Positions 12,296 to 40,712 of a stretch of 41,251 nt of DNA are shown piece after piece. The notes below the pieces were generated by a model. That model was not told the DNA's origin and did not search any database. It was given only the letters and a program-made list of their open reading frames with translations. Each line of letters begins with the position of its first letter. The first letter of the stretch is position 1. The DNA comes from an uncultured Methanosarcinales archaeon (lineage in GTDB: Archaea > Nanobdellota > Nanobdellia > Woesearchaeales > DATDXC01). The translations under genes and the position numbers were made by a program. The stretch covers positions 1 through 41,251 of the forward strand of contig CAYUUQ010000001.1 in assembly GCA_964447875.1 (NCBI GenBank), given 5' to 3'.

Positions 12296-12481
12296 AATGA
12301 TTTTATTTCTGCTAGGCACTTCTTATAATAAAAAGTGTAAAATTTAAGTATTGATTTATAATTTTTATTAAATAAAGAGCGAATAAATAAGATAAAAATA
12401 AGAAGTTTATGAAGAGTAATAAAGAAAGTTAATCTAATAAGAAAACCTATTCTTGAAAATTTCTCATTACTATCTCTTAGA

Positions 12482-13225: not shown

Positions 13226-13298
13226 CTATTTAAAAGTAATGTTAAACTCTTTCTTTTTTGATAATATAATGCTATTTTAAATAAGGCAATATTTAAAT

Positions 13299-14970: not shown

Positions 14971-15929
14971 ATAATTTGATAAGATTTGTATCTAATTTAG
15001 GAATTGTATTAAAAAAGATAAGATTATTTCCAAGACTAATTAAGAATTATATTTTGCTTGCTTTTGGTAAAACTGCCCTAAGAACTGTAGAAATCGCTTT
15101 AACGTATGAATGTCAATGTAGGTGTAAACATTGTAGTTCTTATGGCTTAAAGGATAAGAAAAAAGAAGAATTAAGTATTAATAAAATTAAGAAATTAATA
15201 GATGATGCTGTAAAAGAAGGAGCAATACATATCCTTTTTACTGGTGGAGAAACTCTTCTGGCTAAAAATAAACTTATTCTGTTATTAAAATATGCTAAAA
15301 GAAAAGCGTGCTTAACTAGTATTGATACAAATGGATTATTATTGGATAAAAAATATGCTTTAGAACTTAAAAAAGCAGGATTAGATGTTGCTTGTGTTAG
15401 TTTGGATAGTTTTAACGAAAAAAAACATGATAAATTTAGGGGATATGTGGGGTGTTGGAAAAAATCTATTGGAGCTATAAAAATCTTTAGAAGGCTTAGA
15501 ATAAATGTCATAATCAGCACTCTGATTACAAAAAATAATCTAAGAAATGGGGATTTAAAAAAAATATTAAAATTTGCCAAAGATAATGGAAGTAGTGTAA
15601 TTTTTTGTCTTCCTGTGATGACAGGTAGATGGAAAGATAATAAAAAAGATAAACTTGATAAAAAAGATTTCAAGAAAGTTGAAGAAATAATGAAACATCC
15701 ATTAGCTAGACTTTGTGAGGAAAATAATTATTTTTTCAAAGGTTGTGCTGCGGGTTCTGAGAAAATAACTGTAAGCCTTTATGGAGATGTTACTCCTTGT
15801 TCGTTTATAAAAGAAAAATATGGGAATATAAGAAAAGATAAATTAACTAGTATCTTGAAAAGGATGAGAAAGAATAAATATTATAATAAAGTAAATAGAA
15901 AGATTAAATGTTTGGCGTCTGAAAGATGA
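14967..15929 (+). CDS. Radical SAM enzyme (twitch/SPASM-like C-terminus); paralogue of 18023..19039
   Basis: LTYECQCRCKHC (CxxxCxxC), FTGGETLL, CAAGSEKITVSLYGDVTPC. ATGA overlaps at both ends. Confidence 0.85.
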   Translation: MNNLIRFVSNLGIVLKKIRLFPRLIKNYILLAFGKTALRTVEIALTYECQCRCKHCSSYGLKDKKKEELSINKIKKLIDDAVKEGAIHILFTGGETLLAKNKLILLLKYAKRKACLTSIDTNGLLLDKKYALELKKAGLDVACVSLDSFNEKKHDKFRGYVGCWKKSIGAIKIFRRLRINVIISTLITKNNLRNGDLKKILKFAKDNGSSVIFCLPVMTGRWKDNKKDKLDKKDFKKVEEIMKHPLARLCEENNYFFKGCAAGSEKITVSLYGDVTPCSFIKEKYGNIRKDKLTSILKRMRKNKYYNKVNRKIKCLASER

Positions 15930-18019
15930 TAGGGGGAATAATTAAAATATTTTTAATATCGATTTTTGTATTTTTAATACCATCTTATTTATTAACTCAA
16001 TTATCCAAGAAAAAAGATTTTGAAAAATTCTTTTTAAATCTTATGATAGTGTTTATTTTCTTACCATTAATTTCATTCTATCTTATTTTGATTACAAATA
16101 ATTTCTTTACTTTAATTAGTATTTCAATAATAGCAACAATTCTCAATTTAGCATTAATAATATTTGTAAAATATAAGAAATGTGGATTGAATAGAATCAG
16201 TATTAGAAAGAGAGACTATGTGATATTAATAATTTTGTTGGTTGTTTTTGTATTTAATTTCTTAACATTTTCTTTCCCAGAAGAAGACAGATATGAATGC
16301 CAAGATGATTGGGTCTACGCTAATATCCAATCTGAATACAGATACCACCCAAAACATACTGTTATAAATAACTTATTACCTAGCTCTTTTTATAATTACT
16401 CAAATACTGGAGAAGGAATATTGTATTATGAATTAAAACATAATTATAAGAGTGGCCCTCAAACTAATTGGGTTGAAAGACAATCTGTATGGAATGATGA
16501 ACCATTCTCCATAGGCATACATCAGTCCTTTTTTATTGGTTTGTTTAATTTTTTGGGTATAAGAATTATGTTTTCATTAATTATGGCATGCTCTTCAATA
16601 CTAATTTTTTTTATAATCAGAAATTTTGAAAAGGGGTTGTGGTTTTTATCAATTTTGGCCATTATATTATTGAATACTAGTTTAATTGCTAAAGAATCCC
16701 ATAGTGCTAATATAAACTATCTGGGTCTGCTCCTTGTTACAATAATCATGTATATGCTAACAAGAAAAAATATATCAACTAAAGAGGTAATTTTAACAGG
16801 GGCTCTATATGGTTTTCTTGGTTCTATAAGGCCAATTACCATACTGTTTATACCTGGGATTATCTTATACTTTTATCATCATGATTTAAAGAAGATTATT
16901 CCGTTTGGAATAAGTTCTTTAGTATTAATATCCCCCGTAATGGTCATAAATTACTTTTTATATGGTAATCCGCTCCAATTTCCTGGCTTTTTTTATCGCC
17001 CCCTTATTGAACACAATTTATTTGGATTAACTTTTTATGTAAGACAACTTTTTAATTTTCCTTTTTATACGCACATAGTTAGAAGCAGAGGGTATCCTTA
17101 TCCAGTGTTTTTTTATTTGCCTTTGATGATGCTAAAGAACTTTGGATTAATTTTATTTAGTACTATTTTTTTTGGATTAAAAGAAATAAGAAACAAAAAA
17201 TTGAGATATTTTTTCTTGGTTACTCCCTTATTGCCCTTCATCTTATTCTTAGTAAGTGAGGATTGGGAAAGTCAAAAGACAACATTATTATTGTTAATCT
17301 TGCCATTTATTATTTTTTTTAGCATTAATGGTCTAAAAACAATAATTAAAAATTTCAAAGATAAAAGAAAATTAATATTGTTTTCTACATTATTATTTCT
17401 TATTATTATATGTATGATAACCATTAGAGATTTAGATTTTCCTGTTGATAAAAGACAAGGATTGGTAATGCCTTATTTAATAGAAGAGAATGAAAAAGAT
17501 ATAATCTACCAAAGAAAAGAACTGACAAATATTAATTTATTTCCTTTATTATCCTTTAATAAAATAAATATAGATGAGTTAACTGAAGATATGAAACTAA
17601 AAAGAGAATTGCCGCCTTTTTTAGAAAAATTCGCAAAGTGCATAAATGAAAGAGATGATATTATTGGATATAATTTCATAAAAAAAGAAGAAAAGATATA
17701 TTTAACAATACCCCATATAAAAGACAAAGAAGATGTATCTATAGATATGGAAGAAATAAATATTTCAAAAAATGATATTATTTTCAGAGATATATCTTCA
17801 CCAAACCATTGTTATACTTTTAATCTGAGGATAATTAAAAATGACAATGAAATTGATTTTTTTGTAGATAATATTTCTCAAAGAAGTTACAATAAAACTA
17901 TTGGTAAAGAAATAGAGATTATATTGGAAGATAAAAATATTGATTTGAAATTGTTTGAAAATGATAAATTGATGGCTAATCTAAAAGAAGGGCCATATAT
18001 GGTTGGAGAGATAACATAA
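15926..18019 (+). CDS. Polytopic membrane protein, GT-C-like, with C-terminal soluble domain of about 200 aa; paralogue of 9055..10845
   Basis: 697 aa. Acidic loop FPEEDRYECQDDW follows the N-terminal TM bundle. Shares motifs with the 9055 protein. Flanked on both sides by rSAM genes on the same strand. Confidence 0.5.
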   Translation: MIGGIIKIFLISIFVFLIPSYLLTQLSKKKDFEKFFLNLMIVFIFLPLISFYLILITNNFFTLISISIIATILNLALIIFVKYKKCGLNRISIRKRDYVILIILLVVFVFNFLTFSFPEEDRYECQDDWVYANIQSEYRYHPKHTVINNLLPSSFYNYSNTGEGILYYELKHNYKSGPQTNWVERQSVWNDEPFSIGIHQSFFIGLFNFLGIRIMFSLIMACSSILIFFIIRNFEKGLWFLSILAIILLNTSLIAKESHSANINYLGLLLVTIIMYMLTRKNISTKEVILTGALYGFLGSIRPITILFIPGIILYFYHHDLKKIIPFGISSLVLISPVMVINYFLYGNPLQFPGFFYRPLIEHNLFGLTFYVRQLFNFPFYTHIVRSRGYPYPVFFYLPLMMLKNFGLILFSTIFFGLKEIRNKKLRYFFLVTPLLPFILFLVSEDWESQKTTLLLLILPFIIFFSINGLKTIIKNFKDKRKLILFSTLLFLIIICMITIRDLDFPVDKRQGLVMPYLIEENEKDIIYQRKELTNINLFPLLSFNKINIDELTEDMKLKRELPPFLEKFAKCINERDDIIGYNFIKKEEKIYLTIPHIKDKEDVSIDMEEINISKNDIIFRDISSPNHCYTFNLRIIKNDNEIDFFVDNISQRSYNKTIGKEIEIILEDKNIDLKLFENDKLMANLKEGPYMVGEIT

Positions 18020-18022
18020 AAA

Positions 18023-19039
18023 ATGCGAAACAGATTTTTTTATAATTTGAGGTTGATATCTAAGAAAAAAGGATTGTTATTTAAATTGATTAGAAACTAT
18101 ATCAATTTAATTTTATTAAACCAAAGGGTCTTAAAGGCTGTTGAATTAGATCTCACATTTGATTGTCAACTTAATTGTCTACATTGTTACGCAAAAGGCA
18201 TCTCTAATAGAAAAAAGAGAAAGATAAATTTAGAAGAAATTAAAGATATCGTTGATCAGTGTGAGAAACTTGGAGCAATATATTTTTTATTGAGTGGTGG
18301 AGAATCACTACTTTCAAAACATATTTACGAAACAATAAAGTATATAAATAAGAAAAATTTATATTGTAGTTTAGTAACAAATGGTTTGGCTCTTAATTCT
18401 AAGGTCATAAAGAAGTTAAAATTTTTTGGTTTAGACAATATAATAATAAGTTTGGATAGCCCAATAAAAAATAAACATAATTATCGTAGAGGTTCTAGAA
18501 AGTCTTATGATAATATAATAAAAAATTTAAGATTATGTAAAAAAGAAGGATTGGAAGTTTTTACAAGTACCATAATAACTAGAGATAATCTCTATAATAA
18601 AGAAATTGGGGAAATAATAGAATTGGGGAAAAATCTAAATATTAAAAGTCAATTCTGTTTTTCTGTTGCATTAGGTAATTGGAAAAACAAAGATGTTTTA
18701 TTAAGAAAACATGATTGGGTTTATATAAAGTCTTTTTTAAAAAACTATGATGTCAGAACATGTGAAGAAGGGAATTACCTCAAATGGGGTTGTGCTGCTG
18801 GTTCTGAAAGAATAACTATAACCCCATATGGGGATGTAATGCCTTGTTGTTATATCCAAATGTCTTTTGGGAATATTCGGAAAGAAAAAATAAAAAAGAT
18901 TTGGAAAAGAATGACAAAGAACAAGTTCTTTAATGATGTTAACAACAAATATTGTCTACCTGCTTATGATAAACAATTTATAGAAAAAGTGATGACAAAA
19001 ATAAATAAATCAAAAGAAAAACCATTTAAATCTGAATAA
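18023..19039 (+). CDS. Radical SAM enzyme (twitch/SPASM-like C-terminus)
   Basis: LTFDCQLNCLHC (CxxxCxxC), LSGGESLL, CAAGSERITITPYGDVMPCC. Confidence 0.85.
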   Translation: MRNRFFYNLRLISKKKGLLFKLIRNYINLILLNQRVLKAVELDLTFDCQLNCLHCYAKGISNRKKRKINLEEIKDIVDQCEKLGAIYFLLSGGESLLSKHIYETIKYINKKNLYCSLVTNGLALNSKVIKKLKFFGLDNIIISLDSPIKNKHNYRRGSRKSYDNIIKNLRLCKKEGLEVFTSTIITRDNLYNKEIGEIIELGKNLNIKSQFCFSVALGNWKNKDVLLRKHDWVYIKSFLKNYDVRTCEEGNYLKWGCAAGSERITITPYGDVMPCCYIQMSFGNIRKEKIKKIWKRMTKNKFFNDVNNKYCLPAYDKQFIEKVMTKINKSKEKPFKSE

Positions 19040-19049
19040 AATTATAAAA

Positions 19050-20501
19050 ATGCAATCTACCTCTTCAAACAAAGAAAAAAAGTATGATATTGTTTTAATT
19101 TCTATACAAAGAGATTCTTTGTCTACAAATAGTAGAAAAAAAGATGGATTAAACAGGTTGCCCCCATTGGGTTTAATGTATCTTGGTTCTTATCTCAATA
19201 AAATGGGTTTTAAAACAAAGATATTAGATATACCTGTAAATCGATTAGATGAAATTATAAATTTTGTTAAGAAAAGTATTACTAGAATTCTTGGATTTAG
19301 TATAACTACTTCAACTTTTAAAATAACAAAAAGATTTTTAGAAGAAAATAAACAAGTATTTAGTAATAATATTATAATTCTCGGTGGTGTCCATGCTAGT
19401 TCTATGCCTGAAACTTGCTTCAAAGAAATAGAAAAAATGGATTTTTTAGTTTATGGGGAAGGTGAAAAAATATTATATAATTTATTAAAAGAACTAAATA
19501 AAATTAATTGTGAAAAAAAAGATCTTCATAAAATAAAAAAAGAGTTGAATAGTATTAATGGACTTTGTTATAGGATTAATGATAAAATAAATATAAATAA
19601 AAAGCCTAACTTAATAGAAAATTTAGATGATATTCCTTTTCCAAAAAGGGATAGATTAAGTAAGTATATTCCGCCACCCAATCAATATAAGAAATTGCCT
19701 GTGGCCCATATAATGGCTAGCAGAGGTTGTTCTTATAATTGTTCTTATTGTTTAATAGGTAGTATGTATTCTTCTACTAGGTATAGATCAGTAGAAAATG
19801 TTATCAAAGAAATAAATTATCTTTTAGGGCTGGGTGTTAAAGAAATACATATTTGGGATGATTGTTTCACTTCTAATTATTTATGGGTTAAAAAATTTTG
19901 TGAGAGAATTATAAAAGAGAATATTAAATTTTCTTGGAGCTGTTTTTCGAGAGTTGATACCATCGATGAAAAACTGCTAAGGTTAATAAAATCTGCTGGG
20001 TGTTGGTGCATATTTTATGGAATCGAATCTGCTAACAAAGATCAATTAAAGCTTATTAATAAAAATATATGCTTAAAAAGAGCAGAAGATATAATAAAGA
20101 TAACTAAAAATTTAGGAATTTGTACTAGGGTTTCTTTTATGCTTGGTCTTCCTGGAGAAAACATAAAAAAAGCTAAGAAAACTATTAATTTTGCTATTAA
20201 ACTAAACCCAGATTATATCCAGTTCTGTTATACGACACCATTTCCTGGAACACAGTTATACAAAAATTATCACAAATATGGAACATTAGAATCTAATTTC
20301 TCAAATTATAGCTTATGGGATCCTGTTTTTATTCCATTTGGATATAAAACAAAAAAAGATCTAATAAAGATTAAAAAATATGCATTTAGAAGATTTTACT
20401 TAAGACCGAGTTATATTTTAAATCAATTAAAATCTATAAAATCCTATGAAGATTTTATTAGGTTTGTTAAAGGATGTTTTTTCTTAATTAATTATTTATA
20501 A
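19050..20501 (+). CDS. Class B (cobalamin-binding domain) radical SAM enzyme
   Basis: LPPLGLMYLGSYL, IIILGGVHAS and LVYGEGE (B12-domain pattern), then ASRGCSYNCSYC. Confidence 0.85.
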   Translation: MQSTSSNKEKKYDIVLISIQRDSLSTNSRKKDGLNRLPPLGLMYLGSYLNKMGFKTKILDIPVNRLDEIINFVKKSITRILGFSITTSTFKITKRFLEENKQVFSNNIIILGGVHASSMPETCFKEIEKMDFLVYGEGEKILYNLLKELNKINCEKKDLHKIKKELNSINGLCYRINDKININKKPNLIENLDDIPFPKRDRLSKYIPPPNQYKKLPVAHIMASRGCSYNCSYCLIGSMYSSTRYRSVENVIKEINYLLGLGVKEIHIWDDCFTSNYLWVKKFCERIIKENIKFSWSCFSRVDTIDEKLLRLIKSAGCWCIFYGIESANKDQLKLINKNICLKRAEDIIKITKNLGICTRVSFMLGLPGENIKKAKKTINFAIKLNPDYIQFCYTTPFPGTQLYKNYHKYGTLESNFSNYSLWDPVFIPFGYKTKKDLIKIKKYAFRRFYLRPSYILNQLKSIKSYEDFIRFVKGCFFLINYL

Positions 20502-22237: not shown

Positions 22238-23284
22238 TCACCAGTTCATTATTAGATCTATAATTCTTCTAACTTTCATCATAGAATGTGGGAAGATAAA
22301 ACATCTTGAATCGCAATTAAGACAAAAATCAAAATTACCTGTTCTTCTTTTATAATCTAAGAATTTTTTAGACTTGAACACTTTTACAATATCTTTGTTT
22401 TTAATATCTAGTTTATCAACTACATAAGCATCACATGGCAAAGAAATGCAACCATCAGGCAGCAGATTTATAGAATATTTTAACACTTCACATTTTTTAT
22501 TAATGGCATCTTTTTTTTCTAAATGGTCCAAATAAAAACTAGTATTAGATATATTTCGGTATTTTCCCTTTAACTTTTTGACCATATTAACAAAAAAGGT
22601 TGGGTCTATTTTTCTAATATTTTTAGAGCCTTTAGATTGTGGTAATTTTATAGAAATTGGGCAATCGAACATATTAACAGGAGAAAATGTTATTTTACAC
22701 CCTATTTTTTGTGATAGCTTAGCTAATTTTTCCATTTGATCTAGTGAGTCTCTTGTTATTGTTGAGTTTATTGCTACATTAACACCTTTTTTTCTAGCGA
22801 GAATTATATTATTTATAATTTTTTTATATTTATCCTTAGTACCCCGTATTTCATCATGAAAATCCACGGAATCGACCGAAACTCTTAAGATATCTATATT
22901 TTTAATGAATGATTTTTTATTGAGATATTTATCTAACAAAGTTCCGTTTGTATTGATAATGTTAAAAAAACCAGATTTTTTTGAGAAAGTCAAAATTTCA
23001 ACTAAATCATTTCTTAATAATGGTTCACCACCAGTGAGATCAAAAATAGACATTCCTAACTTTGAGAATTGATAAATCAATAATTTGGCCTGGGAAGTAC
23101 TTAGCTCTTTATCTCTAGGAAAATATTTTTCTCCGTATTTATGTATATTACAAAAAGCACATTCCATATTGCACCTATATGTGGGTTTCCACTGAAGTAA
23201 GATTGGGGTAGTAATACCCACCATATTTTTTAAAATAGTGTATAATGTTTTAAAAGTTGATTTTGAAAAAGGCCTTATTATCAA
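22238..23284 (-). CDS. Radical SAM enzyme with Cys-rich C-terminal extension
   Basis: PTYRCNMECAFC (CxxxCxxC), LTGGEPLL, C-terminal CLNCDSRC. The ORF-track start is a TTG in a TTGA overlap with the upstream stop. An alternative ATG lies at 23224. Confidence 0.85.
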   Translation of the reverse strand: MIIRPFSKSTFKTLYTILKNMVGITTPILLQWKPTYRCNMECAFCNIHKYGEKYFPRDKELSTSQAKLLIYQFSKLGMSIFDLTGGEPLLRNDLVEILTFSKKSGFFNIINTNGTLLDKYLNKKSFIKNIDILRVSVDSVDFHDEIRGTKDKYKKIINNIILARKKGVNVAINSTITRDSLDQMEKLAKLSQKIGCKITFSPVNMFDCPISIKLPQSKGSKNIRKIDPTFFVNMVKKLKGKYRNISNTSFYLDHLEKKDAINKKCEVLKYSINLLPDGCISLPCDAYVVDKLDIKNKDIVKVFKSKKFLDYKRRTGNFDFCLNCDSRCFIFPHSMMKVRRIIDLIMNW

Positions 23285-24408
23285 TTTATGTACCTCTTGT
23301 ATTCATTTATTACTGTTGCTAAGTTGGTCATTAAATATTTTAGTGAAAACCTAATTTTTGGTTCAACTTGACAATTATCCCAACATTTTTTACATCTCTG
23401 AAGTTTTTTTCTTACTTTGTTAAATTTTTTAGAGTTCCATATTTCTCTGATACTATGGTCCCTAATATTCCCAGCAATCAATTTACTGCCATAACAAGGA
23501 TAGACATCCCCATAAGAATCCACTTCACAAACAATATTTCCCCCACTACATCCCCCCATTGGAAGATTTTTTCTATAAAAAGAAGGAATGCTGTTAAAAA
23601 ATATTTTTGACATGCTGTTTAGCTTATTTTTCCCCAGATAATTAACCAGACGTTTTAATTCATATTCTAATTGTTTAACTTCTGCCACAGTATTAAAATA
23701 AAGGGAGTTATTTTGCTTTAAATAGTAATTAAGAGGGTATAATTTTTGGATAGGAAGAAAGTTTATTGAACTGACTTTCAGTTTTTTAGCCAAAGAAGCT
23801 AAATCTATTAAATTTTTATAATTTCTCTTATTTATTACACAATTTATAGATATTGAGATTTTTGGATTTATTCTCTGAATTGATTTTATTGCATTCGATG
23901 CTTTATCAAATGCCCCTTTCATCCCCCTTAAAGAATCATGTATATTTGATTTAGGTGAATCTATGGATATTGTAAAATTTTTTAAACCTGAATTTTCAAG
24001 TTTTTGTATATACCTAGGTGTTAATTTAGAGGCATTTGTCGTTAATGCTGTTGGCAGACCAATTTTAGAAGCTTCTTTGATAATCTTTGGTAAAAACTCA
24101 ACTAATGTAGGTTCTCCCCCAGCTATGTGCAATAATTTTACTCCTAGTTTCTTAGAATCATAAATCAATTGTTTTACTTCATAAAAATCTAATTCCCTCT
24201 TTGAACTCTTAATCCTCCACATATCGCAAAATTGACAATGAAAATTACATTTTTTTGTAAGTTCGAGATAAACAAAAAGTGGTGCTTTTGGGGGTTTATT
24301 AAAAAGTAGATTAATGTATGTATTTAGATACAAAAAAAGATTATTTATCCATTGCCTCATTTTTATAGGCAAAGCACATAAATTTATAAATTTATGTATA
24401 ACATCCAT
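23281..24408 (-). CDS. Radical SAM enzyme with SPASM-like C-terminal domain
   Basis: LTKKCNFHCQFC (CxxxCxxC), IAGGEPTL, GGCSGGNIVCEVDSYGDVYPC and CKKCWDNC. The ORF track extends to 24519. That extension overlaps the N-terminus of the divergent pseudogene, so the ATG at 24408 (MDVIHKF) or 24360 is more plausible. Confidence 0.85.
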   Translation of the reverse strand: MDVIHKFINLCALPIKMRQWINNLFLYLNTYINLLFNKPPKAPLFVYLELTKKCNFHCQFCDMWRIKSSKRELDFYEVKQLIYDSKKLGVKLLHIAGGEPTLVEFLPKIIKEASKIGLPTALTTNASKLTPRYIQKLENSGLKNFTISIDSPKSNIHDSLRGMKGAFDKASNAIKSIQRINPKISISINCVINKRNYKNLIDLASLAKKLKVSSINFLPIQKLYPLNYYLKQNNSLYFNTVAEVKQLEYELKRLVNYLGKNKLNSMSKIFFNSIPSFYRKNLPMGGCSGGNIVCEVDSYGDVYPCYGSKLIAGNIRDHSIREIWNSKKFNKVRKKLQRCKKCWDNCQVEPKIRFSLKYLMTNLATVINEYKRYIN

Positions 24409-24454
24409 AATATGAAAGACATTATATTGGTATCTCAAGGTCTTGATTATTTTG

Positions 24455-25807
24455 TTGGAAAATCGAATAAATATAATAATATTGCAGTTTTCAGAAAATC
24501 TGAAGCATACCCCTCCCATTGGGTCTTTGTTATATTGGAAATGCTTTACTCAATGTAAAATATAAGGTAGGCATTATAGATTCTACATTAGAAGATTATA
24601 ATATAGCAAATATTGTAAACAAGATTATACGTGAAAAACCGAAGGTTATCGGTATAAGTGTTTCGAGTTTGTCTCTTCACTGGACATATATATTAATTCG
24701 GTTATTAAGAAAAAAGTGCAAAGCTAAAATTATTTTAGGTGGACCACACATAAGTTATGAACCATATTCATTTAATTACCTTAAAGCAGATTATGGTCTA
24801 AGGGGAGATAGTGAATTTGAATTTTTAAAACTTGTTGATCTTATACTTAGAAATAAAGGAGAAGAAGAAAATATTTCTGGTCTTTTAAGCACGAAAAAAG
24901 TAAAAAATAGTCAAATAAATATTATTGATGATCTTAATTCTATACCGTTACAATCTAGACAGTTATTGGATAATAATAAATATGTTTTCCCCCTTAATAC
25001 TGGAAAAGTTACTACAATAATCACTACAAGAGGTGCCCATTTAATTGTGTTTATTGTATATGTGGAAAAAGCAAATATAGAGAAAGATCTATAAAAAACA
25101 TAATTGAAGAATTGATGATTCTTAACAAAAGATTTGATTATATTGATTTTCAAGATGACTGTTTTACATTTAATAAAGAAAGAGTTAAAAAATTATGTTT
25201 TGAAATGATAAAGCAAAAATTCGTTTTCAAATGGGGTTGTGCAACAAGAATAACTCTTATTGATAAAAAATTATTAAAGATAATGAAAAAAGCTGGTTGT
25301 GAAAATATACGTTTTGGAATTGAATCTGGCTCTAAAAAAATTAGGTGTATGACTGGTAAATCTATTGATTACAATTTATTAGATAAAAACCTTAAGATGG
25401 TAAAAAAAGAGGGTATTCGTTGTGTTGGTTTTTTTATCTTGGGGCTTCCTAAAGAAAAGAAAAAAGATATTAAAATGACTTTATCCATTATAAAAAAATT
25501 AGATTTGGATTATATAGAAGTTGGTTTGCCCTTACCCATAGCTGGTTCTGATCTCTTTAAAATGATGATTAAAGATGGAAAAGTTAAAAAAAGTTATTGG
25601 AAAGATATTTGCCATGGAAAAAGACAGATTGAATATTACATATCCAATAATTTAAGTTTTAATTATCTTAAAAGTATGCAAAATAAGGCGTATCTAACAT
25701 TTTATTTTAGACCAAAGATAATAATCAGTAATTTATTGGAAATCAGATCTTTAAAAGATTTGATTCTTAAGTTTAGTATTGCATATGAAATTCTAAAGAA
25801 TAATTAG
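24455..25807 (+). pseudogene. Class B radical SAM gene disrupted by two frameshifts (ORF-track pieces 24519..25094 and 25112..25807)
   Basis: Frame A (24455-24523) reads (TTG)MENRINIIILQFSENLKHTPPIG. Frame B continues LCYIGNALL...ILGGPHIS...TTRG and stops at 25092-25094. Frame A resumes at 25034 with CPFNCVYC (CxxxCxxC) and runs uninterrupted into the 25112 ORF. The second junction splits TTRG|CPFNCVYC exactly. Confidence 0.75.
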
Positions 25808-25815
25808 CTCAAAGG

Positions 25816-27180
25816 TCAATCACAAATATAAATATCTTTTATTTCTGTTTCATTACAGTTATTCCTAAGCCAAGTAATTGTAGAATTATTGAAATAATAT
25901 AAATCATTATTTTTGATTTCACCATTATAAATAAACCAGTTCCTACCCTCTGCACTATTGCTTATTTTACCTGGATCTGAAAAATCATAAAAAGTAAAAT
26001 TCTTGTATTTTAGATTTGAATGATACTCTATTTCAAAAGCTTTGAAACCATCTACATATAACACATCTCCCTCTTTAAAGTTGGATTCAATATAGTTTAT
26101 ATAACTTATATCGTGTTTTTTAGCATAAACATCAGATATTCCAATTGTACTGAGTATTATAATAATAAGGATAATTACATGTTTAATATTAACAGAAATA
26201 GTATGAAGATATTTAGAGAAATAAAGAAGATAAAATGGTAATAGGAATATTATTTGATAATGTCTTATATTTATAAAAAAAGATAAGATAAAAAATAAGA
26301 TAGGCAAAAAGATAAAAAGTAGATTGGATAGTAAATTTTTATCTTTAGTTCGTATGTAAATAAAATAGAATAAAGCAAGCATAAGGACCCCGAACCATTT
26401 TATGCCGCCTATAACAATATGATAAAATAAATTGAATATTGTGTTTGTGTTTGGTGGAAATAACATATCGTGCCAAGGTTCATTATAGGGAAAATCGAAA
26501 AGACCATATTTTATTGTTAATAGTAATTGAGGTATAAAGGTACAACCGACTATCAAGAAAATAAAAGAAACTTTTTTAATCTTGCACCTACAATGGGGAT
26601 TAAACAATAGATATAAAAACTCAACGAAAAAAAGAAACATACTATAAAAATGTGTTTGTGCTAGGAAAAAAGAAGATGCTAATAAAAATATCCAATTTTT
26701 TTTGGTTCCATCTTTTAAGAATCTTATAAAGGTATAAAAATTGATTATTGATAAAAAAATAAAAAGTGAATATTTGTCTACTATACGAGAATAATCTATC
26801 AATATAGGGCATATTGCAAGAAAAAAAGCACTTAAATTTGCGACTTTTTGATTAAACATAAACTTAGCAAGTTTATGAATCATAAAAATCGATAACAAAC
26901 CGAAGATTATGGGTAAGATTCTCGAAGAAACTGAACCTATCCCAAAAGATATGTTCCAAAAATGTAATATAAAAAACCAAAGTGGTGGATGAGGGACACC
27001 TGTTCTTATAAAATTATAACTTATTGGCCGGGAAGATACATCCAAAATACTTAATTCTTCTTCGTTCAAATTCTTTTCTGATAAATTAAAAAAAGCCAAA
27101 CTTAAAAAGATGAGCATACTGAAAATAATAAATAAGTATTTCTTAAAAATTCTGAATTTATATTGTTTAAGATTTAACAT
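25816..27180 (-). CDS. Polytopic membrane protein, GT-C fold glycosyltransferase-like (PMT_2/ArnT-like)
   Basis: 454 aa. An acidic first loop (SEKNLNEEELSILD) is followed by GVPHPPLWFF and many TM helices. The start overlaps the upstream rSAM stop by 7 nt. Confidence 0.6.
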   Translation of the reverse strand: MLNLKQYKFRIFKKYLFIIFSMLIFLSLAFFNLSEKNLNEEELSILDVSSRPISYNFIRTGVPHPPLWFFILHFWNISFGIGSVSSRILPIIFGLLSIFMIHKLAKFMFNQKVANLSAFFLAICPILIDYSRIVDKYSLFIFLSIINFYTFIRFLKDGTKKNWIFLLASSFFLAQTHFYSMFLFFVEFLYLLFNPHCRCKIKKVSFIFLIVGCTFIPQLLLTIKYGLFDFPYNEPWHDMLFPPNTNTIFNLFYHIVIGGIKWFGVLMLALFYFIYIRTKDKNLLSNLLFIFLPILFFILSFFINIRHYQIIFLLPFYLLYFSKYLHTISVNIKHVIILIIIILSTIGISDVYAKKHDISYINYIESNFKEGDVLYVDGFKAFEIEYHSNLKYKNFTFYDFSDPGKISNSAEGRNWFIYNGEIKNNDLYYFNNSTITWLRNNCNETEIKDIYICD

Positions 27181-28607
27181 CTATACTTATCCCCTATTTT
27201 TTCTTCAAAAATCTTTTTCAAATAAAAAAAATCACTCAAAAGAGTTTTATGTTTAAGGCCATATGATGTGCGTTTTAGTATAAATGGCAGTCTAAAATAA
27301 AATTCCTTATAGAATAGGTTATAATAATAAAAAATCTTTTCGGTTTTAAGATTTGGATGATTATAAATAGGTACCCGATTATTATGAAATTTATATAAAT
27401 TCCAGTCTTCTGTCAAAATTCTTTTTTCTTTTTTCCACCTATACCAATATTCCGTACCAGGATAGGGAATAAATATGGAAACTCTTGCAAAAGTTGGATC
27501 TAGTTTCTTTACAAAGGAGATAGTTTGCTTCATCGTTTCTTCGGTTTCTTCTGGATTTCCAAAAACACATAATGCATAAGTATCTATATCATATTTATTG
27601 GCTTTTTTAAAGGCTTTAATTGTCTGATTGATTTTAATATTCTTGTTTAATGAGTTAATAATCTTTTGTGAACCTGATTCCACACCAAAAGAAATACGAT
27701 AACAGCCTGCTTTTTTAGCATAATTGAGAAATTCATCATCAACACGATCAACCCGTATACCATTCTCCAGATTTAATGAAATATTCAGTTTTTGCTTTTT
27801 TATTTGGTAGCATATTCCTTTGGCTCTTCTTAAATTCTGGGTAAATGCATCATCAGTTAAGTGGATATCATTATAACCTAAGTCTTTTAGGTAATTTATT
27901 TCTTTTATTACGCGCGATATAGATTTTATTCTAAAAGTTGTTTCAAATTTCTGATTACAATATATGCACCTTTGATAATAAGGGCAACCTCTGCTTGTTT
28001 CAATGAACGCTATTGGGAAGTCTTTATGGAATGTTTTATAATATCTTGATTTTCTAATCATCTTTTTATCGATTAGATCCCATGATGGGATAGGTAAAGT
28101 ATCCAGATCTAAAATAACATTTCTATGTCCTGTTTTTATAATCTTTTTTCCTTTTTTATAATATATACCATTTATTTTATTTAATTTATTTCCCAAGATA
28201 ATCTCTTTTAGTGTATTGTCTCCTTCTCCAACAACAACTATATCCAATAGGGTTTGTTTTAAACAATATTCTGGTAGAGCAGAAACATGTGATCCACCAC
28301 CAATTAATAAGATATGTTTGTTAAATTTCTTTATTTTGGCAATTATTTTCTGAGCATTAAAAAAATTGGGTGTTTTAAAGGTTACCCCCACATGGGTTGG
28401 ATTGAACGACTGCAAGGTTTTGAATAGTTTCAAATTTGGATTTTCATATAGATTTAAGTCTAAGATTTTAACTTCATGACCAATTGTGCATATTGGTGCT
28501 GCTAAAACTGGCAAAGTTAACCCAGGAAAGTAATCTCCTTTAGCTAAAGACCCAGTGTAAGCATTTTCTGCCCCCCCTACTTCAACTAATAATATTTTTG
28601 ATTTCAT
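27174..28607 (-). CDS. Class B (cobalamin-binding domain) radical SAM enzyme with variant Cx5Cx2C motif
   Basis: LLIGGGSHVSALPE and VVVGEGDNT (B12-domain pattern). The cluster motif SRGCPYYQRCIYC was verified on the DNA at 27957-27986 as C-x5-C-x2-C. Confidence 0.8.
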   Translation of the reverse strand: MKSKILLVEVGGAENAYTGSLAKGDYFPGLTLPVLAAPICTIGHEVKILDLNLYENPNLKLFKTLQSFNPTHVGVTFKTPNFFNAQKIIAKIKKFNKHILLIGGGSHVSALPEYCLKQTLLDIVVVGEGDNTLKEIILGNKLNKINGIYYKKGKKIIKTGHRNVILDLDTLPIPSWDLIDKKMIRKSRYYKTFHKDFPIAFIETSRGCPYYQRCIYCNQKFETTFRIKSISRVIKEINYLKDLGYNDIHLTDDAFTQNLRRAKGICYQIKKQKLNISLNLENGIRVDRVDDEFLNYAKKAGCYRISFGVESGSQKIINSLNKNIKINQTIKAFKKANKYDIDTYALCVFGNPEETEETMKQTISFVKKLDPTFARVSIFIPYPGTEYWYRWKKEKRILTEDWNLYKFHNNRVPIYNHPNLKTEKIFYYYNLFYKEFYFRLPFILKRTSYGLKHKTLLSDFFYLKKIFEEKIGDKYRC

Positions 28608-29808: not shown

Positions 29809-29844
29809 TGTTACTTTTTTTTGGTTATATTTCTATATCCCCTT

Positions 29845-31494
29845 TTAAACATTTTTCACCAAATAATTACCAATTGCTAAATAATCCAATTTAGCTTCTT
29901 TAAAAGCCGCTATAGCGTCATTAGGGGTACAAACAATGGGTTCTTCGTGTAGATTGAAGATTGTAATTAATATTTAACATTTTCCAGTGATCTTCCTAAA
30001 TTCATCTAAAATCTTATAATATGGTGGATTATCTTCCTTTGACAGTATTTGTGGTCTTGCGGTTCCATCTATATGAGTTACTCCCGGACATTCTTCTTTC
30101 ATTTTTGGCTTACAATCGAAAGATATGTTCATATATTTTGAAGTTAATTTAGCTTTTTTTAGGTCGTAATAATATTTGTCAGCAAATTTTTTGATAGTTG
30201 TTGGTGCAAATGGCATAAAATTGGTTCTTTTTAATTTCTTATTTAACCATATTCTTACAGTATTGTCATCTGGCAGGCAGAGTATAGATCTATTTCCTAA
30301 TGCTCTAGGACCATACTCTAATGCTCCATTAAATCTTGCTATAATTTTTCCTTTTGACAGTAATTCTGCTACTTGATATTCGATATTGGTTAATTTCTCA
30401 TAAAATATCCCTTTTTTATCTAATGTCTTCTTAATCTGCTCGTCTGAAAAATCTGGACCTAGGTAGATTGTGTCCATTGGTGCATGAGGTATTCTTATTC
30501 TTTTATTCAACCAACATAAACCAGCACCCATACTTAAACCGACATCATTCATAGCTGGATGGATGTATACTTGTTTGACTTTATCTAATTGAGATAATCT
30601 TTGATTTAGTTTAACGTTGGAAAATACCCCACCAGATAAAGAAAGATTATTTGATCCATATTCGTCTAAAAGATTAGAGGTATAATCACAAAAAATCTTC
30701 TCGAATAATAACTGTAATGTGTGTGCTACATCTTCTTTCTTAAATGTAGCTAAGAATGATTTTAATTTAGGATAATTATTAAAAAAAGTTCTAGAAAGAA
30801 GGAAGGTGTTTTGTTTATTATCTAGATAAAATATTCTTTTTAATTTTTTAAATAATCTCTTATTGGGTTTACCATAGGCAGCTAGACCTGTTACCTTACC
30901 TACCTCTTTCATTGGATCGAAACCCAATAATTCAGCAATTCCTCCATAAAATAGTCCAGGCGAATTAAGTGGTGACGAAGTTTTAATAATTTTATAGGTA
31001 TTATTTTGACATAATGATGTTGTTGAAGAATGATAATCCCCGACTGCGTCGGCTGTTAAAGTTATTGCTTTATTAAATCCAGAAGTAAAGTATGCATTAC
31101 ATAAGTGGCATTCGTGATGGGGCAATGTTTCTTTAAAAGAGATTGGTATTTTATTTAAAAGTGTATTAACTTCCCTAATTTTATTATTATTAAATAATAT
31201 TTCACTATATTTTACTCTCATATATTCTAAAAAAGTAAAACACGAATCTTTTTTATTTTTTAAGAGCATATTAACAAATCTATGAGGATTATTTTGACTA
31301 GAATATATTGTTCTATGAATATTATATCTTTCCTTTAAAAGTTTAATAGATAAAGAAGGCTTACCTGAGTCCAGCTTCTTTCTAGACAAATTTTCATTTG
31401 CTAAAGAAAATAATATTTTGCCATTAGAATCAAATAATGTGGAGGAGTTATTTTGGCCATCATTTATACTTAATATGTATTTTTTAAAATTCAT
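29845..31494 (-). pseudogene. Carbamoyltransferase (NodU/CmcH family) with an in-frame TAA at 29974-29976
   Basis: LPHHECHLCNAYF, LEYGPRALGNRSILC and FMPFAPT. After ...KITGKC-TAA the same frame continues ILITIFNLHEEPIVCTPNDAIAAFKEAKLDYLAIGNYLVKNV-TAA. This aligns with the C-terminus of the intact paralogue (VLNTSFNIHGYPLVMSPENAIE...GKLVMGNFLVEIK). Confidence 0.85.
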
Positions 31495-36165: not shown

Positions 36166-36918
36166 TCAATACAAAGATAAGTTGGGTTTAGCTTTTTGAT
36201 ATTCTTTATATGCTTTTATCCATGTCTTTGACATCATTTCTTTAGTTATCCTCTTATCATTATTAAAGTTTCTTTTAAAATGCCCGCAAAAACGACATAG
36301 TAATCTTAATTGACTTTTTAATGTTTGTTGATTTACTAATGAAAGTCTCTTTATAGCTATATCAAAACCAAATACTCTATCAAGGCTAGCCCCTGCACCA
36401 CATGGATAATAACCATATCTAGTCAGCCCCAATCCACATTCTTGAGTTGTCTTACAACCTCTAGTGAAATCTGCGTTCTTATATTCTTTTATATCAATTG
36501 GTGATATGTTATAACTAAAAAACTTATTTTTAATAGAAGTTTTATATGAATTTCTAATATTCACCCAACTTGGTAATTTGGATAAAATTTTATTAACTTT
36601 TCTACCATACCCATTTGTTACAAGTTCTATAATACAATTCTGTTTTATGTCCCTATATCTTTTTAAGATCCTTAGGATATCAAAAATATGTGGATGTAAA
36701 GTTGGTTCGCCACCAAGTAATCCTATATATTTCCAATTCCAATTTTATTCGATAGATTCATTTACGAACTTAATAATTTGGTTGAGCGTCATCTGTTCAT
36801 TAGATGCGGCTTGTCTAACTGATCTATTACAATTAAAACAACATAAATTGCAAAAGGTAGTTATTTCAATTTCTATCTTTTTCATATTTGGAATCCATGA
36901 TCTTTTCTTATTAGACAT
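36166..36918 (-). pseudogene. Small radical SAM gene with an in-frame TAA at 36745-36747
   Basis: Hand translation from the ATG at 36918 gives MSNKKRSWIPNMKKIEIEITTFCNLCCFNCNR...FVNESIE-TAA-NWNWKYIGLLGGEPTLHPH... This runs in the same frame into the ORF-track piece 36166..36564. The stop separates the CxxxCxxC motif from the GGEP motif. Confidence 0.8.
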
Positions 36919-36961: not shown

Positions 36962-38674
36962 TCATTTTATTGAATTTTTACTTATTTCAAAAAAATCTTT
37001 ACACATATCGCAATACTCAAAATTTTTACTCTTAACCTTTCTTCTTACAGAAATGGCTTCACTAGAATAATATATATCATGCAGATTTTTCTCAAATATA
37101 TTTCCTATTTTAGCTTCAAGAATAGTTAATGTTCCACAACATGGAAAAACATCACCATTTGGCATTATATCAAGGGTATAATTAGGAACAACACACGGAA
37201 CTTTTTTGTGGAATATTTTACCATATTTTCCTTCTGAAAAATTCTCTAATTCTTCTAAAAATTCATTATTTTTTGATTTATTTATAATAAAAATTTTTGA
37301 TTTCCCAACTAAATCAAAAAAGAAAGGATTGAATGAAATGTTTATTTTTAATTTTTCACTTAGCATGTTAGGAATAATTTTTAAATAAAATTCTTTCATT
37401 TGAACTTTATTCAGCCTTAAATTTGATTTGGATATTACCTTATTTTTTGAATTTTGACTTAAGCAATCAACTTGAGAAAAATAAAGATTATCAACCCCTA
37501 ATCTATCCAAAATTATCGGAAGATCGGATATATGATCATAATTTATTTTTGTAATAACGCAATTTACACCAACTCTTATTTCAGGATTCGATATCTTTAT
37601 TTTTTGTATAAACTCAGTTATTTTATCGAAACTATCGACTCCTGTTATTTTTTTTTGAATATCTTTATCATCTGAGTGTAATGTTAACATAACTTCATCT
37701 AGTAACTTTGAATATTTTATTACTTCGTTATTATTTAAAACTGCATTGGTGGCATATTCTATTTTAAATCCTAATAATTTAGAAAATTCAAAAACTTCTA
37801 TTAGGTTATGATATAAACTAGCTTCTCCACCTGTTATCTTGATATGATTAAAATCTAACACAAATGCTTCAAATAAAATGTTTTTTACTTTTTCAAGAGG
37901 TAAACTAGATTTATTTTCTTGATTCCACCAATCACATATTATACATCTTGAATTACATTTGTCTGTTAACCTTAGGTAAATTGATTTTGTTGGATAATCT
38001 GAAATTGGTTTTGCTATTGAAATAAACTTACTCTTACCATCAAACAACCTAACATCAACCTCTTGTTTTAATTCCCTTAAATTTCTTATACCCTTAACTG
38101 TTTGTTCAAAACTTCCTGGAACTTTAGTTATCTTATCATGTTCTTCAGAGGTTTTACCAAATATATTAATTATAAACTTATTTGCACCAGCATCGATTAT
38201 TTTTTTACAATATTCTAAGTTTGAAAATGCTCTTCCGTTTGATTCTATTGTTATGTATTTATAATCTAACTGTTTTGCATAATCTATTAAAACATCTAAA
38301 TTATCTCTTAATGTTGATTCTCCACCTGTGAAAATTACTTCTTCTCTGAAATAGGATTCTTTGTTATCATTTTTCCATTCTTGAAGTTGATTAAAAACAA
38401 CTTCTTTTCTTTTTCTATCTCCGCCCTTACCTATCTGAAAACAAAAAGAACAATTATTATTGCATTGATGAAAAATTGGTATCTTTAATGGTGTTTTTAG
38501 TTCTTCAAGTATTAATTTAGGAGTGAGATTAGAATTAAATGTCATTTCTAGTTCTGAAAAATTGTTTTTCATCATTGATAATTTTTCTTTTGAATTATTT
38601 AATTCTTTTATTAGATTGGTTAATTGAACAATATCTAGATTGGCTATTGATTTAGAAACGCCTTTATCTACCAA
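36962..38674 (-). CDS. Tandem di-domain radical SAM protein (two complete rSAM cores)
   Basis: Core 1 has CNNNCSFC (38441-38464, verified on DNA) plus FTGGES. Core 2 has CNSRCIIC (37934-37957, verified) plus ITGGEA, then CVVPNYTLDIMPNGDVFPCC and CDMC. The ORF-track start is a TTG. The first ATGs are at codons 34/35. The frame is continuous with the upstream GT-B gene. Confidence 0.85.
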   Translation of the reverse strand: MVDKGVSKSIANLDIVQLTNLIKELNNSKEKLSMMKNNFSELEMTFNSNLTPKLILEELKTPLKIPIFHQCNNNCSFCFQIGKGGDRKRKEVVFNQLQEWKNDNKESYFREEVIFTGGESTLRDNLDVLIDYAKQLDYKYITIESNGRAFSNLEYCKKIIDAGANKFIINIFGKTSEEHDKITKVPGSFEQTVKGIRNLRELKQEVDVRLFDGKSKFISIAKPISDYPTKSIYLRLTDKCNSRCIICDWWNQENKSSLPLEKVKNILFEAFVLDFNHIKITGGEASLYHNLIEVFEFSKLLGFKIEYATNAVLNNNEVIKYSKLLDEVMLTLHSDDKDIQKKITGVDSFDKITEFIQKIKISNPEIRVGVNCVITKINYDHISDLPIILDRLGVDNLYFSQVDCLSQNSKNKVISKSNLRLNKVQMKEFYLKIIPNMLSEKLKINISFNPFFFDLVGKSKIFIINKSKNNEFLEELENFSEGKYGKIFHKKVPCVVPNYTLDIMPNGDVFPCCGTLTILEAKIGNIFEKNLHDIYYSSEAISVRRKVKSKNFEYCDMCKDFFEISKNSIK

Positions 38675-38704
38675 TAGATTGGTTCTTTCTAATTGATCAT
38701 CATA

Positions 38705-39529
38705 TTATTTAACCAAAGCGTAAAGTAAAGATGTGGTTTTTGTATAAATAAAATCATTTATAGTGTTATACCCTACTTGAGAGATTACTAAATCTGCGCA
38801 ATTCATTAATTCTAAAAAATTCTGTTCAAATTTAACAACTGAATCATTAGGTATTTTATTATATGGTCCAGAAATTATTATAAAATTAATGTTTTCGTTT
38901 GTTAGTTTTTCTTTTAATTTTAGAATTAAATCAAAATATTCTTTTGATTTTTTATCTCCTCCGCCGCCTGCAGATGCTAAGATAACTAATTGATTGTTAA
39001 TTATTTTATATTTTTTAGAAACATCTGAATTAATCTTTAATTTTCTAACTAATGGCCCTATAAATTTTATTTTTTCTGAATTTGATAATGATTCTAATAT
39101 TTTTGGTGGTACAGAATATCCTTTAAACTCATCAATAGAATGGGGCAATAAAATTAAATCAATATGTTCGTAATCTGAACTTTTTATGAATTTATCGATA
39201 AGATTGTTTTTATATTTTCTAAAAACAAATATATGTTTTAAAGGGAAATTAAATGTTGTACCTAAAATACCTGTATTGTAACTAGCATCCCAAATTATAG
39301 CGTTTGGTTTATAATCTGTAATTATATTATATATTTCTTCATAATAGTTCTTTTTCTCAATCTTAAAATAGGTATATCCTTTTTGATCTAACCAATAATT
39401 GAATTTAGAATTAGTCATAAATGCTATATCTAAGTGAGGCATTGCTTTTTTTAACATGTCTGCAATTATTATGCTTCTATTTAAATGACCTAGTCCTTCA
39501 CCATTTACAACATAAAATAATATTTTCAT
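38705..39529 (-). CDS. GT-B fold glycosyltransferase (GT28/GT1, MurG/MJ1255-like), apparently truncated by a TAA at 38705-38707
   Basis: MKILFYVVNGEGLGHLNRS (G-x-GH-x-x-R), LASAGGGGDK and ADLVISQVGYNT. The ORF ends about 55 aa short of the family norm. Beyond the TAA, YDDQLERTNLLVDKGVSKSIANLDIVQLTNLIKEL continues the GT28-type C-terminal pattern in the same frame. Confidence 0.65.
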   Translation of the reverse strand: MKILFYVVNGEGLGHLNRSIIIADMLKKAMPHLDIAFMTNSKFNYWLDQKGYTYFKIEKKNYYEEIYNIITDYKPNAIIWDASYNTGILGTTFNFPLKHIFVFRKYKNNLIDKFIKSSDYEHIDLILLPHSIDEFKGYSVPPKILESLSNSEKIKFIGPLVRKLKINSDVSKKYKIINNQLVILASAGGGGDKKSKEYFDLILKLKEKLTNENINFIIISGPYNKIPNDSVVKFEQNFLELMNCADLVISQVGYNTINDFIYTKTTSLLYALVK

Positions 39530-39572: not shown

Positions 39573-40712
39573 ATGAAAAGGGTTGTTTTTATATTTCCTA
39601 AATTAAGTAGTCTTGGGGGAGCTGAGAAGGTATTTTTGCATGCTATGAAGATTATGCAAAATCAAGGATATGAGATAATATTGATAACTCAGAGTATTCC
39701 TGATAATGATATGGCTATAAAGCTTTATGGAATAGATATTGAGAAAATAGTTTCAAGATATTATAAAGTAAGGGCTTCTAATTTATCTTCATCTTTTAGA
39801 GGCATATGGGTCTATCAGAAGGAAAAAGAGATAGGAAAGATTCTAGAGATAATAGAAAAAGAGAAACCTGAAATGTTATTTATCTCTCAAGCTAATATGC
39901 CAAAAATTGAGGTTGATATCCCTAAGATTGCTTTTGTCTGGTGTCCGTTTACAAGGTATTTATTTAAAAGAAAAAATTACAAGTTAAAAAGTGAGTGGAG
40001 AAAAAAGATGGATGCTAAAGTTGATGAAGCACCAGACGATTATCTATTACTTGCTAATTCTGAATGGACACAAGATAAGATAAAACAAATATGGGGATGT
40101 GAAAGCAAGGTACTGTATCCTTGTTGTGATATCAAAGAAGGAAGTGTAAAGGCTGAAGATAAAAAAAATTGGATATGTACTATATCTCGGTTTAATAAAC
40201 ATAAACATATAGAGATTGCAATTGATGCTGTTAAGGAATTAGAGAATCTTGAATTACATCTGATAGGTATTGCTAAAAATGAAGAAGATGAAGATTATTT
40301 GAAGAAATTGAAGAAAATGGCTGGGAGTAAATGTGTGTTTCATGTTAATGCTAGTATAGAAGAGAAAAAAGAAGTTCTTAAAAAAAGTAAGTATGGATTA
40401 CATCTAAATGGTGCTAATATGCAATTTCCAACATATGTAGGGTATGAACACTTTGGAATTGTTATCGCTGAGATGATGAGTTTTGGATGTGTAATGCAGC
40501 ATTATAAATATGGATTTTTTCCTGAATTTATATTGGATGAAGATCAGAAATTTAATGGTGTTGATGATATTATTACAAATATAAAGAAGTTTGAGGATGA
40601 TTTTGAATTGTATAATAAAACAATGTTAAAAAATCAGGAGATTGCTAGTAAATATACTGATGAGGAGTTTGAGAAAGGATTATTGGAGATTGTTGAGAAA
40701 ATTGGGACTTAA
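39573..40712 (+). CDS. GT4-type GT-B glycosyltransferase
   Basis: 379 aa. EHFGIVIAEMMSFGCV is the E-x7-E signature of retaining GT4 enzymes. The N-terminal SLGGAEKV motif is typical. Confidence 0.8.
   Translation: MKRVVFIFPKLSSLGGAEKVFLHAMKIMQNQGYEIILITQSIPDNDMAIKLYGIDIEKIVSRYYKVRASNLSSSFRGIWVYQKEKEIGKILEIIEKEKPEMLFISQANMPKIEVDIPKIAFVWCPFTRYLFKRKNYKLKSEWRKKMDAKVDEAPDDYLLLANSEWTQDKIKQIWGCESKVLYPCCDIKEGSVKAEDKKNWICTISRFNKHKHIEIAIDAVKELENLELHLIGIAKNEEDEDYLKKLKKMAGSKCVFHVNASIEEKKEVLKKSKYGLHLNGANMQFPTYVGYEHFGIVIAEMMSFGCVMQHYKYGFFPEFILDEDQKFNGVDDIITNIKKFEDDFELYNKTMLKNQEIASKYTDEEFEKGLLEIVEKIGT

Follow-up and report, generated by a model that had tools for sequence, protein, structure and literature searches.

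We analyzed a minus-strand gene (36962..39529) on contig CAYUUQ010000001.1 of an uncultured archaeon, a stretch of 41,251 nucleotides hereafter called the window. In this record the gene is interrupted at codon 275 by a TAA, with a GT-B glycosyltransferase (GT) on one side and two radical S-adenosylmethionine (rSAM) domains on the other. In sister assemblies the same gene consists of 855 sense codons and a TGA. We put a probability of roughly 75% on the following reading as a whole: the locus is one gene for an 855-residue GT-B/rSAM/rSAM/twitch enzyme, the patch of substitutions that holds the TAA is artefactual, and the enzyme would have a role in surface glycans. The split is not ancient, and it is not a case of programmed readthrough.

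Read from 39529 to 36962, the frame comprises 856 codons counting both stops, and its sole internal stop is the TAA at 38707-38705. The ATG at 39529 opens an upstream open reading frame (ORF) of 274 codons that this TAA closes. Past it, 580 further codons follow in the same frame and end at the TGA at 36964-36962. The first start-like codon after the TAA is a TTG at 38674; the ORF that this TTG opens has no ATG before its codon 34. An earlier interpretation made from the letters of the window (the sequence-only reading) had described a single 856-codon frame with one TAA and no ATG before codon 34 of the rSAM ORF; our ORF analysis agrees on both counts, and the peptide it quoted across the stop is exact. 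After other stops in the window (26% GC), the frame normally closes within 0-25 codons. Because low-GC frames normally close this fast, the long open frame beyond the TAA is not due to chance.

Intact versions of the gene exist. A search of 5.8 billion proteins retrieved an uninterrupted protein of 855 aa (P0001) with 99% identity to the conceptual product, and a cluster look-up added a second intact 855-aa copy (P0020) on a 122.7-kb JGI contig (L004). P0001 and P0020 are encoded on contigs near-identical to the window (L001 and L004, respectively), and their domains come in the order GT-B, rSAM, rSAM, SPASM/twitch. In two partial gene copies the frame is also open through the stop site, for 719 aa on L060 and for 290 aa on L061. 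The tri-domain GT-B + rSAM + rSAM gene postulated by the sequence-only reading is thus found intact in P0001 and P0020, and its junction is found in diverged relatives. That reading had called for a search for orthologues with an uninterrupted frame, and would have been contradicted by GT and rSAM genes that are always separate or by a post-stop peptide unlike GT-B C termini. The orthologues were sought and found, and neither contradiction appeared.

The GT-B domain spans residues 1-345 (38495..39529), as delimited by Pfam, NCBIfam, AlphaFold2 (AF2) and Foldseek, with its glycine-rich loop GEGLGH at 39485-39502. Stand-alone GT relatives are 345-392 aa long and align over residues 1 to ~340, so the 274-aa ORF falls ~60-70 aa short; the sequence-only reading had put the shortfall at ~55 aa. 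The peptide downstream of the stop supplies the missing part. For Pfam Glyco_tran_28_C (PF04101), the 274-aa ORF scores 23.2 bits (profile positions 6-92 of 166), which is marginal against the cut-off of 22, and addition of the post-stop peptide raises the score to 36.8 bits (6-154 of 166). The intact protein P0020 reaches 47.9 bits, which the private amino acid changes reduce to the 36.8 bits of the window's read-through product. The NCBIfam profile for murG (TIGR01133) likewise goes from 16.2 to 33 bits once the post-stop peptide is added, with profile coverage of 152-340 out of 353. These gains uphold the earlier proposal that the peptide is a GT28/MurG-like C terminus.

The structural model points the same way. 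It was built from a 6-sequence alignment, has predicted local confidence (pLDDT) values of ~70-90 over residues 1-345, and is usable only for the GT part and partly for the first rSAM domain; no inter-domain conclusions were drawn from it. According to this model, the GT part of the intact protein has both domains of the GT-B fold in full, down to the helices at the C terminus. Foldseek matched it to GT1/GT28 enzymes with a probability of 1.0, and to MurG with target-normalised TM scores of 0.63-0.68. The stop at codon 275 falls between a predicted strand (267-270) and a predicted helix (278-288), and the 274-aa product would be without the DDQxxR donor-binding helix, a strand and the C-terminal helices. 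In the model, the C-terminal GT helix (335-344) runs straight into strand 1 of the first rSAM domain (348-351), so the GT-rSAM1 fusion appears tight and without a linker.

The domain shares its two-Rossmann GT-B fold with MurG of CAZy family GT28 and with GT1-type enzymes matching PF04101; the GT28/GT1-type structures used as comparators were 1f0k, 1nlm, 3s2u, YojK (7vm0) and CalG1 (3oth). It also shares with MurG/GT28 the N-terminal Gly-rich loop with His (GEGLGH) and the C-terminal donor-binding motif GYNTxNE...P...DDQxxR. It is not MurG proper, for which 33 bits compare with a TIGR01133 cut-off of 250, and the match to the MJ1255 family (40 bits) likewise lies below its cut-off of 196. Among the solved or described MurG, GT28 and GT1-type members that we found, none is fused to radical-SAM domains.

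Gene calling gives two proteins for the window, P0018 and P0019, as would be expected if a GT gene and a di-rSAM gene lay in one frame by chance. Both of these proteins fall in the cluster of the intact protein; the cluster look-up also identified the window as an entire NCBI contig of 41,251 bp. In addition, the GT profile is completed by the post-stop peptide, intact fusions exist, and the junction recurs in at least 14 other clusters. We consider two independent genes to be practically out of the question.

To place the TAA, the window was compared base by base with contigs that jointly span it: L001/L059 and L056 (ENA, SAMN10231913), L004/L051/L055/L058 (JGI 3300009008), L052, L057 and L060 (ENA, SAMN10231914), L053 (JGI 3300007511), L061 (JGI 3300007510), and L054 and L062 (Logan SRR8062320 and SRR8062321). 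Beyond a few sites, these contigs are 100% identical to the window and to one another over ~41 kb; away from the patches described below, the window matches 4-6 other assemblies except for a few singletons. At codon 275 (38705..38707, minus strand), L001, L004, L060 and L061 all have GAA (Glu275), and the window alone has TAA. The sequence-only reading had proposed a gene now divided by a nonsense codon, or one expressed by occasional readthrough. Neither proposal is supported, since the TAA is private and four other assemblies have GAA.

The TAA is part of a private patch of 12 substitutions within 217 bp (38690..38906) that distinguishes the window from the near-identical contigs. All 12 are transversions (three C>A, four G>T, four A>T and one C>G, as read on the coding strand), and 11 of them are nonsynonymous: N208K, E259D, L260F, P266T, P271A (two bases), V272L, D273V, E275stop, D276Y and F280L. 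Among the residues replaced, E259 and P266 show conservation of at least 90% across 42 relatives, and P271 does not vary in alignment A1. In a 25-kb comparison, 12 of the 16 private changes lie inside these 217 bp, for which the clustering probability is <1e-18. Random A/T-directed transversions in this AT-rich coding stretch would be nonsynonymous in 87% of cases and would create a stop in 11%, so that 12 of them would yield one or more stops with a probability of ~0.75. A stop is therefore what noise free of selection would be expected to leave behind. Along the minus strand the changes become denser, with one at 38906 and eleven at 38762-38690, after which identity abruptly returns to 100%; this makes the patch look like the deteriorating 3' tail of a single read bridging a low-coverage spot. 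L001 has two private changes on either side of the patch (38925 and 38668) and contig L061 ends beside it at 38660, which suggests that in more than one data set the site has poor coverage or resists assembly. A look-up of the 274-aa product gave no record in other public assemblies.

Across the assemblies there are 28 variable sites, and all of them are transversions (13 A/T, eight G/T, six C/A and one C/G), without a single transition. This spectrum is unlike that of natural single-nucleotide polymorphisms (SNPs) and is the main reason for suspecting a technical origin. That a real local mutational process, and not error, lies behind the transversion-only patch is a much less likely reading. 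We conclude from the pattern of the changes that the patch, including the TAA, is likely an assembly or sequencing artefact and not the state of the gene in the organism. Each assembly has private singletons of its own, for example at 3477 and 19 (window), 5445 (L056), 13043, 14164 and 14182 (L057), 33350 (L053) and 9776 (L055). A GGC-motif error was considered as a trigger of the patch and set aside as a weak idea; the sole GGCGGCGG lies ~50 nt upstream in the minus direction, and the second patch described below is without the motif. Contig ends also recur near the right end of the window, at 41251 in L001 and L061 and at 41236 in L062. The recurrent ends at 41251 and 38660 look like assembly break points caused by coverage troughs or microdiversity.

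We weighed this interpretation against several alternatives (ALTERNATIVES), namely recoding or readthrough, a diversity-generating retroelement (DGR), contamination by a relative, and a decayed minor allele. Programmed readthrough, in which the TAA is decoded at low frequency to give both a short GT and the full fusion, would account for a downstream frame that is open and homologous and for the first 43 post-stop codons being without ATG. The stop is not conserved, however, being GAA in four assemblies and a sense codon in P0002, P0003, P0005 and P0006. Moreover, the GT-B fold of the 274-aa product would have an incomplete donor-binding half, the neighboring private substitutions strike conserved residues, and TAA terminates ~14 ordinary genes of the window. 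This makes readthrough extremely improbable. That same use of TAA as the ordinary terminator of ~14 window ORFs, whose frames close soon afterwards, also led us to reject stop-codon reassignment. A chimera or contamination with P0002/L002 was rejected as well: the private residues (D, F, T, A, L, V, stop, Y and L) differ from those of P0002, which keeps E, P, P, D, D and F.

Targeted hypermutation of the donor-binding region, by a DGR or another local mutator, would fit changes that are sharply local and mostly nonsynonymous, as well as the two private differences of L001 within the same 258 bp. DGRs are common in DPANN archaea. Yet the window holds no template-repeat copy of 38600-39000, and no reverse transcriptase was found among those of its ORFs that were scanned (100 aa or longer). 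The 14 differences in the region include no transition, where about one third would be expected under random replacement. Four other samples have one identical sequence here, the changes introduce a stop and remove invariant prolines, and a similar patch occurs in an unrelated gene. We regard hypermutation as very unlikely.

That similar patch lies at 29822..29975 and is also private to the window. It comprises four transversions within 16 nt (29960-29975) and the loss of one base in a homopolymer near position 29823 (A8 in place of A9), and here five other assemblies agree with each other against the window. The transversions create a premature TAA that shortens a carbamoyltransferase from 549 to 506 aa, and the homopolymer loss shortens the start of the next rSAM gene from 413 to 398 aa. 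We counted this second private patch with its homopolymer indel towards the artefactual origin of the first.

Other lesions are not private to the window. A small rSAM gene (36166..36918, minus strand; 250 aa when intact) directly downstream of the fusion gene is broken by a single TAA at 36745-36747. This codon is TTA (Leu) in L004/L051, L052 and L053, and is TAA in the window and L001 only, which belong to the same BioSample series; either a genuine nonsense SNP of these samples or an error common to both records may explain it. A B12-dependent rSAM gene (24519-25807, plus strand) is split by a shift at ~25033 into a 191-aa B12-binding ORF and a 231-aa rSAM C-terminal part in different frames. 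At this point 'TTRG' is found in one frame and 'CPFNCVYC' in another, as fits a one-base loss in GGT(T)GCC, and the shift is present in every assembly that covers it (L051 and L052). The gene is either a genuine frameshifted pseudogene or naturally split. We also observed a same-frame pair of plus-strand ORFs at 15926-18019 and 18023-19039 with one TAA between them, encoding a 697-aa protein without a Pfam match followed by an rSAM-SPASM protein. The ATG of the second lies one codon past the stop, all assemblies are alike and gene callers give two genes; this pair is probably an ordinary adjacency.

The lesions common to several assemblies (the TAA at 36746 with L001 and the B12-rSAM shift in L051 and L052) are also what could be expected if the 38705 TAA and its 11 companions were real, that is, if the assembler had followed a minor haplotype carrying a decayed, dead allele of the fusion gene. 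The break of L061 at 38660 and the L001 changes at 38668 and 38925 would likewise resemble the surroundings of a graph bubble. Ordinary decay or strain divergence would instead scatter its changes and include transitions and synonymous sites, whereas we see 12 changes in 217 bp, almost none in the other ~41 kb, and no transitions. Four assemblies from four samples are mutually identical in the patch, and the 274-aa product is on record in no other assembly. A minor allele is thus an unlikely explanation, and we retain the artefactual origin of the patch.

Downstream of the GT domain, the intact protein holds two rSAM domains and a C-terminal tail. The first domain, rSAM1 (residues 348-510; 38000..38488), is short and HxsC/Tes-like, with its CX3CX2C motif at 38441-38464 (C356/360/363) and GGE at 38312-38329 (residues 402-404). 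Its ~165 residues form about five beta/alpha units in the AF2 model. The core of rSAM2 (residues 516-770; 37220..37984) has CX3CX2C at 37934-37957 (C525/529/532) and GGE at 37817-37834 (residues 567-569). On P0020, the Pfam profile PF04055 matches in two stretches with 118.6 bits, which places the protein in the radical SAM superfamily twice over. Other proteins with two radical-SAM domains, such as MJ0619, presumably also carry two CX3CX2C motifs per polypeptide, without a GT domain.

The tail (residues 771-855; 36965..37219) is an auxiliary-cluster domain of the twitch or partial SPASM type. It matches the Pfam SPASM profile (PF13186) with 40.7 bits on P0020. A SPASM domain with two auxiliary clusters is defined by the seven-Cys motif CX9-15GX4C...CX2CX5CX3C...C, and the tail has five cysteines only (C779, C797, C798, C840 and C843), corresponding to the CX12GX4C part and one CX2C. 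A full SPASM domain was accordingly rejected; the spacing fits the twitch of BtrN.

Comparisons with known enzymes give weak resemblances. For rSAM1, the best profile matches are to the His-Xaa-Ser maturase HxsC (TIGR03977/NF038332), and the scores of 126 and 118 bits compare with cut-offs of 500 and 268, respectively, and cover only the N-terminal half of the profiles, so that rSAM1 is placed in neither HxsC nor HxsC4. No HxsA-like peptide was identified for the His-Xaa-Ser comparison. The best PDB match of rSAM1 is Tes/GDGT-MAS (7tol; E=4e-9). The N-terminal part of rSAM2 is most similar to BlsE (7vob), with its CX3CX2C in a 'RLTDKCNSRCIICDWW' context as in BlsE; this similarity is weak (E 2e-5; TIGR04466 65 bits against a cut-off of 400). 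The spacing of the tail, C779-x17-C797/798-x41-C840-x2-C843, aligns with the auxiliary-cluster region of BtrN (4m7s/4m7t), again weakly (E=5e-4). A match of rSAM2 and the tail to the peptide maturase SuiB (5v1q; E=5e-5) is as good as or better than those to BtrN and BlsE. BtrN and BlsE are carbohydrate-modifying radical-SAM enzymes with a single auxiliary cluster (the twitch domain).

The GT-rSAM1 junction extends well beyond the near-identical contigs. P0002 (58% identity) has GT and rSAM1, and P0003, P0005 and P0006 keep the junction in the order GT, rSAM, GT2. An exhaustive HMMER search of 1.84 billion representatives returned at least 14 further 50%-identity clusters in which one contiguous alignment runs from the GT into rSAM1; roughly 80 of its hits have E <1e-30. 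Among the top 42 family proteins, 40 match PF04101 and 33 match PF04055, and the named members come from metagenome-assembled genomes of Woesearchaeota and Thorarchaeota. For instance, P0003 (1164 aa, Ca. Woesearchaeota, annotated as 'glycosyltransferase'), P0041 (Woesearchaeota), P0049 (Thorarchaeota), P0023 and P0021 have the GT28-like-to-rSAM1 junction in common with our protein at 28-37% identity. P0023 (813 aa, 34% identity) has the identical order GT, rSAM, rSAM, SPASM. Most of these archaeal relatives, all of them database predictions only, differ by extra GT2, GT4 or deacetylase modules or by having no second rSAM domain. A polysaccharide deacetylase is inserted in P0022, and P0021 reaches 1920 aa with GT2, GT28, rSAM, GT4, rSAM and SPASM.

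As judged from these predicted architectures, the family shows rapid domain shuffling. In L002, the 58%-identical relative, the orthologue ends after rSAM1 (501 aa). Because the second rSAM lies outside the fusion protein there, the GT-rSAM1 pair looks like the conserved core. The L002 region (10001-17692) encodes the orthologue, then a GT4-GT8 fusion, a separate rSAM-SPASM gene and a separate GT28 gene.

The sequence-only reading did not recognise the architecture from any described enzyme, and our full-text literature searches likewise found no description of GT-radical-SAM fusion enzymes. A scan of genome contigs with the family alignment gave no clear GT-rSAM fusions among the matches listed, which were mostly HxsC-like rSAM genes of Myxococcota and did not include the window's own genome. 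Scans of a metagenome contig collection with the protein and with an exact 30-mer gave no match, so these samples are absent from that collection. Each domain belongs to a well-known superfamily, and no domain scores high enough for membership in a curated functional family; the fusion itself is undescribed. We tentatively suggest that the intact protein belongs to an undescribed DPANN/Asgard family of 'mega-enzymes', in which a MurG-like GT is hard-wired to at least one rSAM domain, so that a single polypeptide would both transfer a sugar and radically tailor that sugar or its acceptor. Such proteins would lie in islands very rich in rSAM genes that make heavily modified surface glycans. We hold this assignment at a little under even confidence.

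Judged by its predicted genes, the 41-kb contig is a glycan-biosynthesis island unusually rich in radical-SAM genes. We counted ~15 rSAM domains, and B12 dependence is predicted for four or more. The B12-rSAM genes lie at 99-1553, 19050-20501 and 27174-28607, in addition to the split gene at 24519-25807, and rSAM-SPASM genes lie at 3386-4477, 14967-15929, 18023-19039 and 23281-24519, next to further rSAM genes. The transferases of the island include two GT2, one GT4, three PMT_2 (a fourth lies just past the window end) and two carbamoyltransferases. The island also encodes a DegT aminotransferase, an NDP-sugar epimerase/dehydratase, a polysaccharide deacetylase, a NodS-like methyltransferase and an LPG_synthase_TM protein. 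The GT4 glycosyltransferase (39573..40712, plus strand) is divergent and lies 43 bp from the fusion gene, an adjacency that is kept in L002.

Past the window end at 41251, L004 (3034-7257) carries an HxsD-like gene and two small ORFs (87 and 81 aa), together with an rSAM gene for 460 aa and an rSAM-GT2 fusion of 625 aa. The HxsD-like and further rSAM genes are ~5-7 kb from the fusion gene. Given the 625-aa protein, the organism has a second kind of rSAM-glycosyltransferase fusion, beside a His-Xaa-Ser-like cassette. The host is a low-GC archaeon of the DPANN type. Its archaeal nature is indicated by gene context: L002 encodes Hjc and RNase P p30, and the flanking gene order is common to L004 and the window. 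Searches with the sample identifiers gave no paper, and a Cariaco Basin origin, guessed from the record names, was not confirmed by PMC9902471 and is not relied on here.

Several points weigh against our favored reading. The choice between an artefact and a real minor allele was judged on the pattern of the changes alone. The singletons of the other assemblies are also all transversions, and about half of the changes are A/T swaps that fit no specific named error mode. Broken genes that are not private to the window (the 36746 TAA with L001 and the ~25033 shift) allow for some real gene decay. As for the function, it is proposed from domain homology and gene neighborhood only; every curated NCBIfam score is far below its cut-off, and the AF2 model is poor for rSAM2, with pLDDT <50 over residues 729-855.

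With these points in mind, a mechanism can be sketched. With a nucleotide sugar as donor, the GT domain would glycosylate an acceptor that is either lipid-linked or a glycan, and the fused rSAM domains would then tailor the same sugar or the acceptor by radical chemistry. By analogy with BtrN and BlsE, the tailoring may be an oxidation, a decarboxylation, an epimerisation or C-C chemistry. Most economically, the enzyme would act in a pathway for cell-surface glycans to which the surrounding island contributes the other genes.

For annotation, this locus should not be passed on as a split gene or as a candidate for readthrough; its correct product is the 855-aa protein of the sister assemblies. 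The local error patches of this record create three false or doubtful truncations. Covalent GT-B/radical-SAM fusions appear to be unstudied. At least 14 other diverged clusters, all from uncultured archaea, contain them as well. With its defined, clonable set of genes, the island offers a way into new radical carbohydrate chemistry and into the surface decoration of DPANN archaea.

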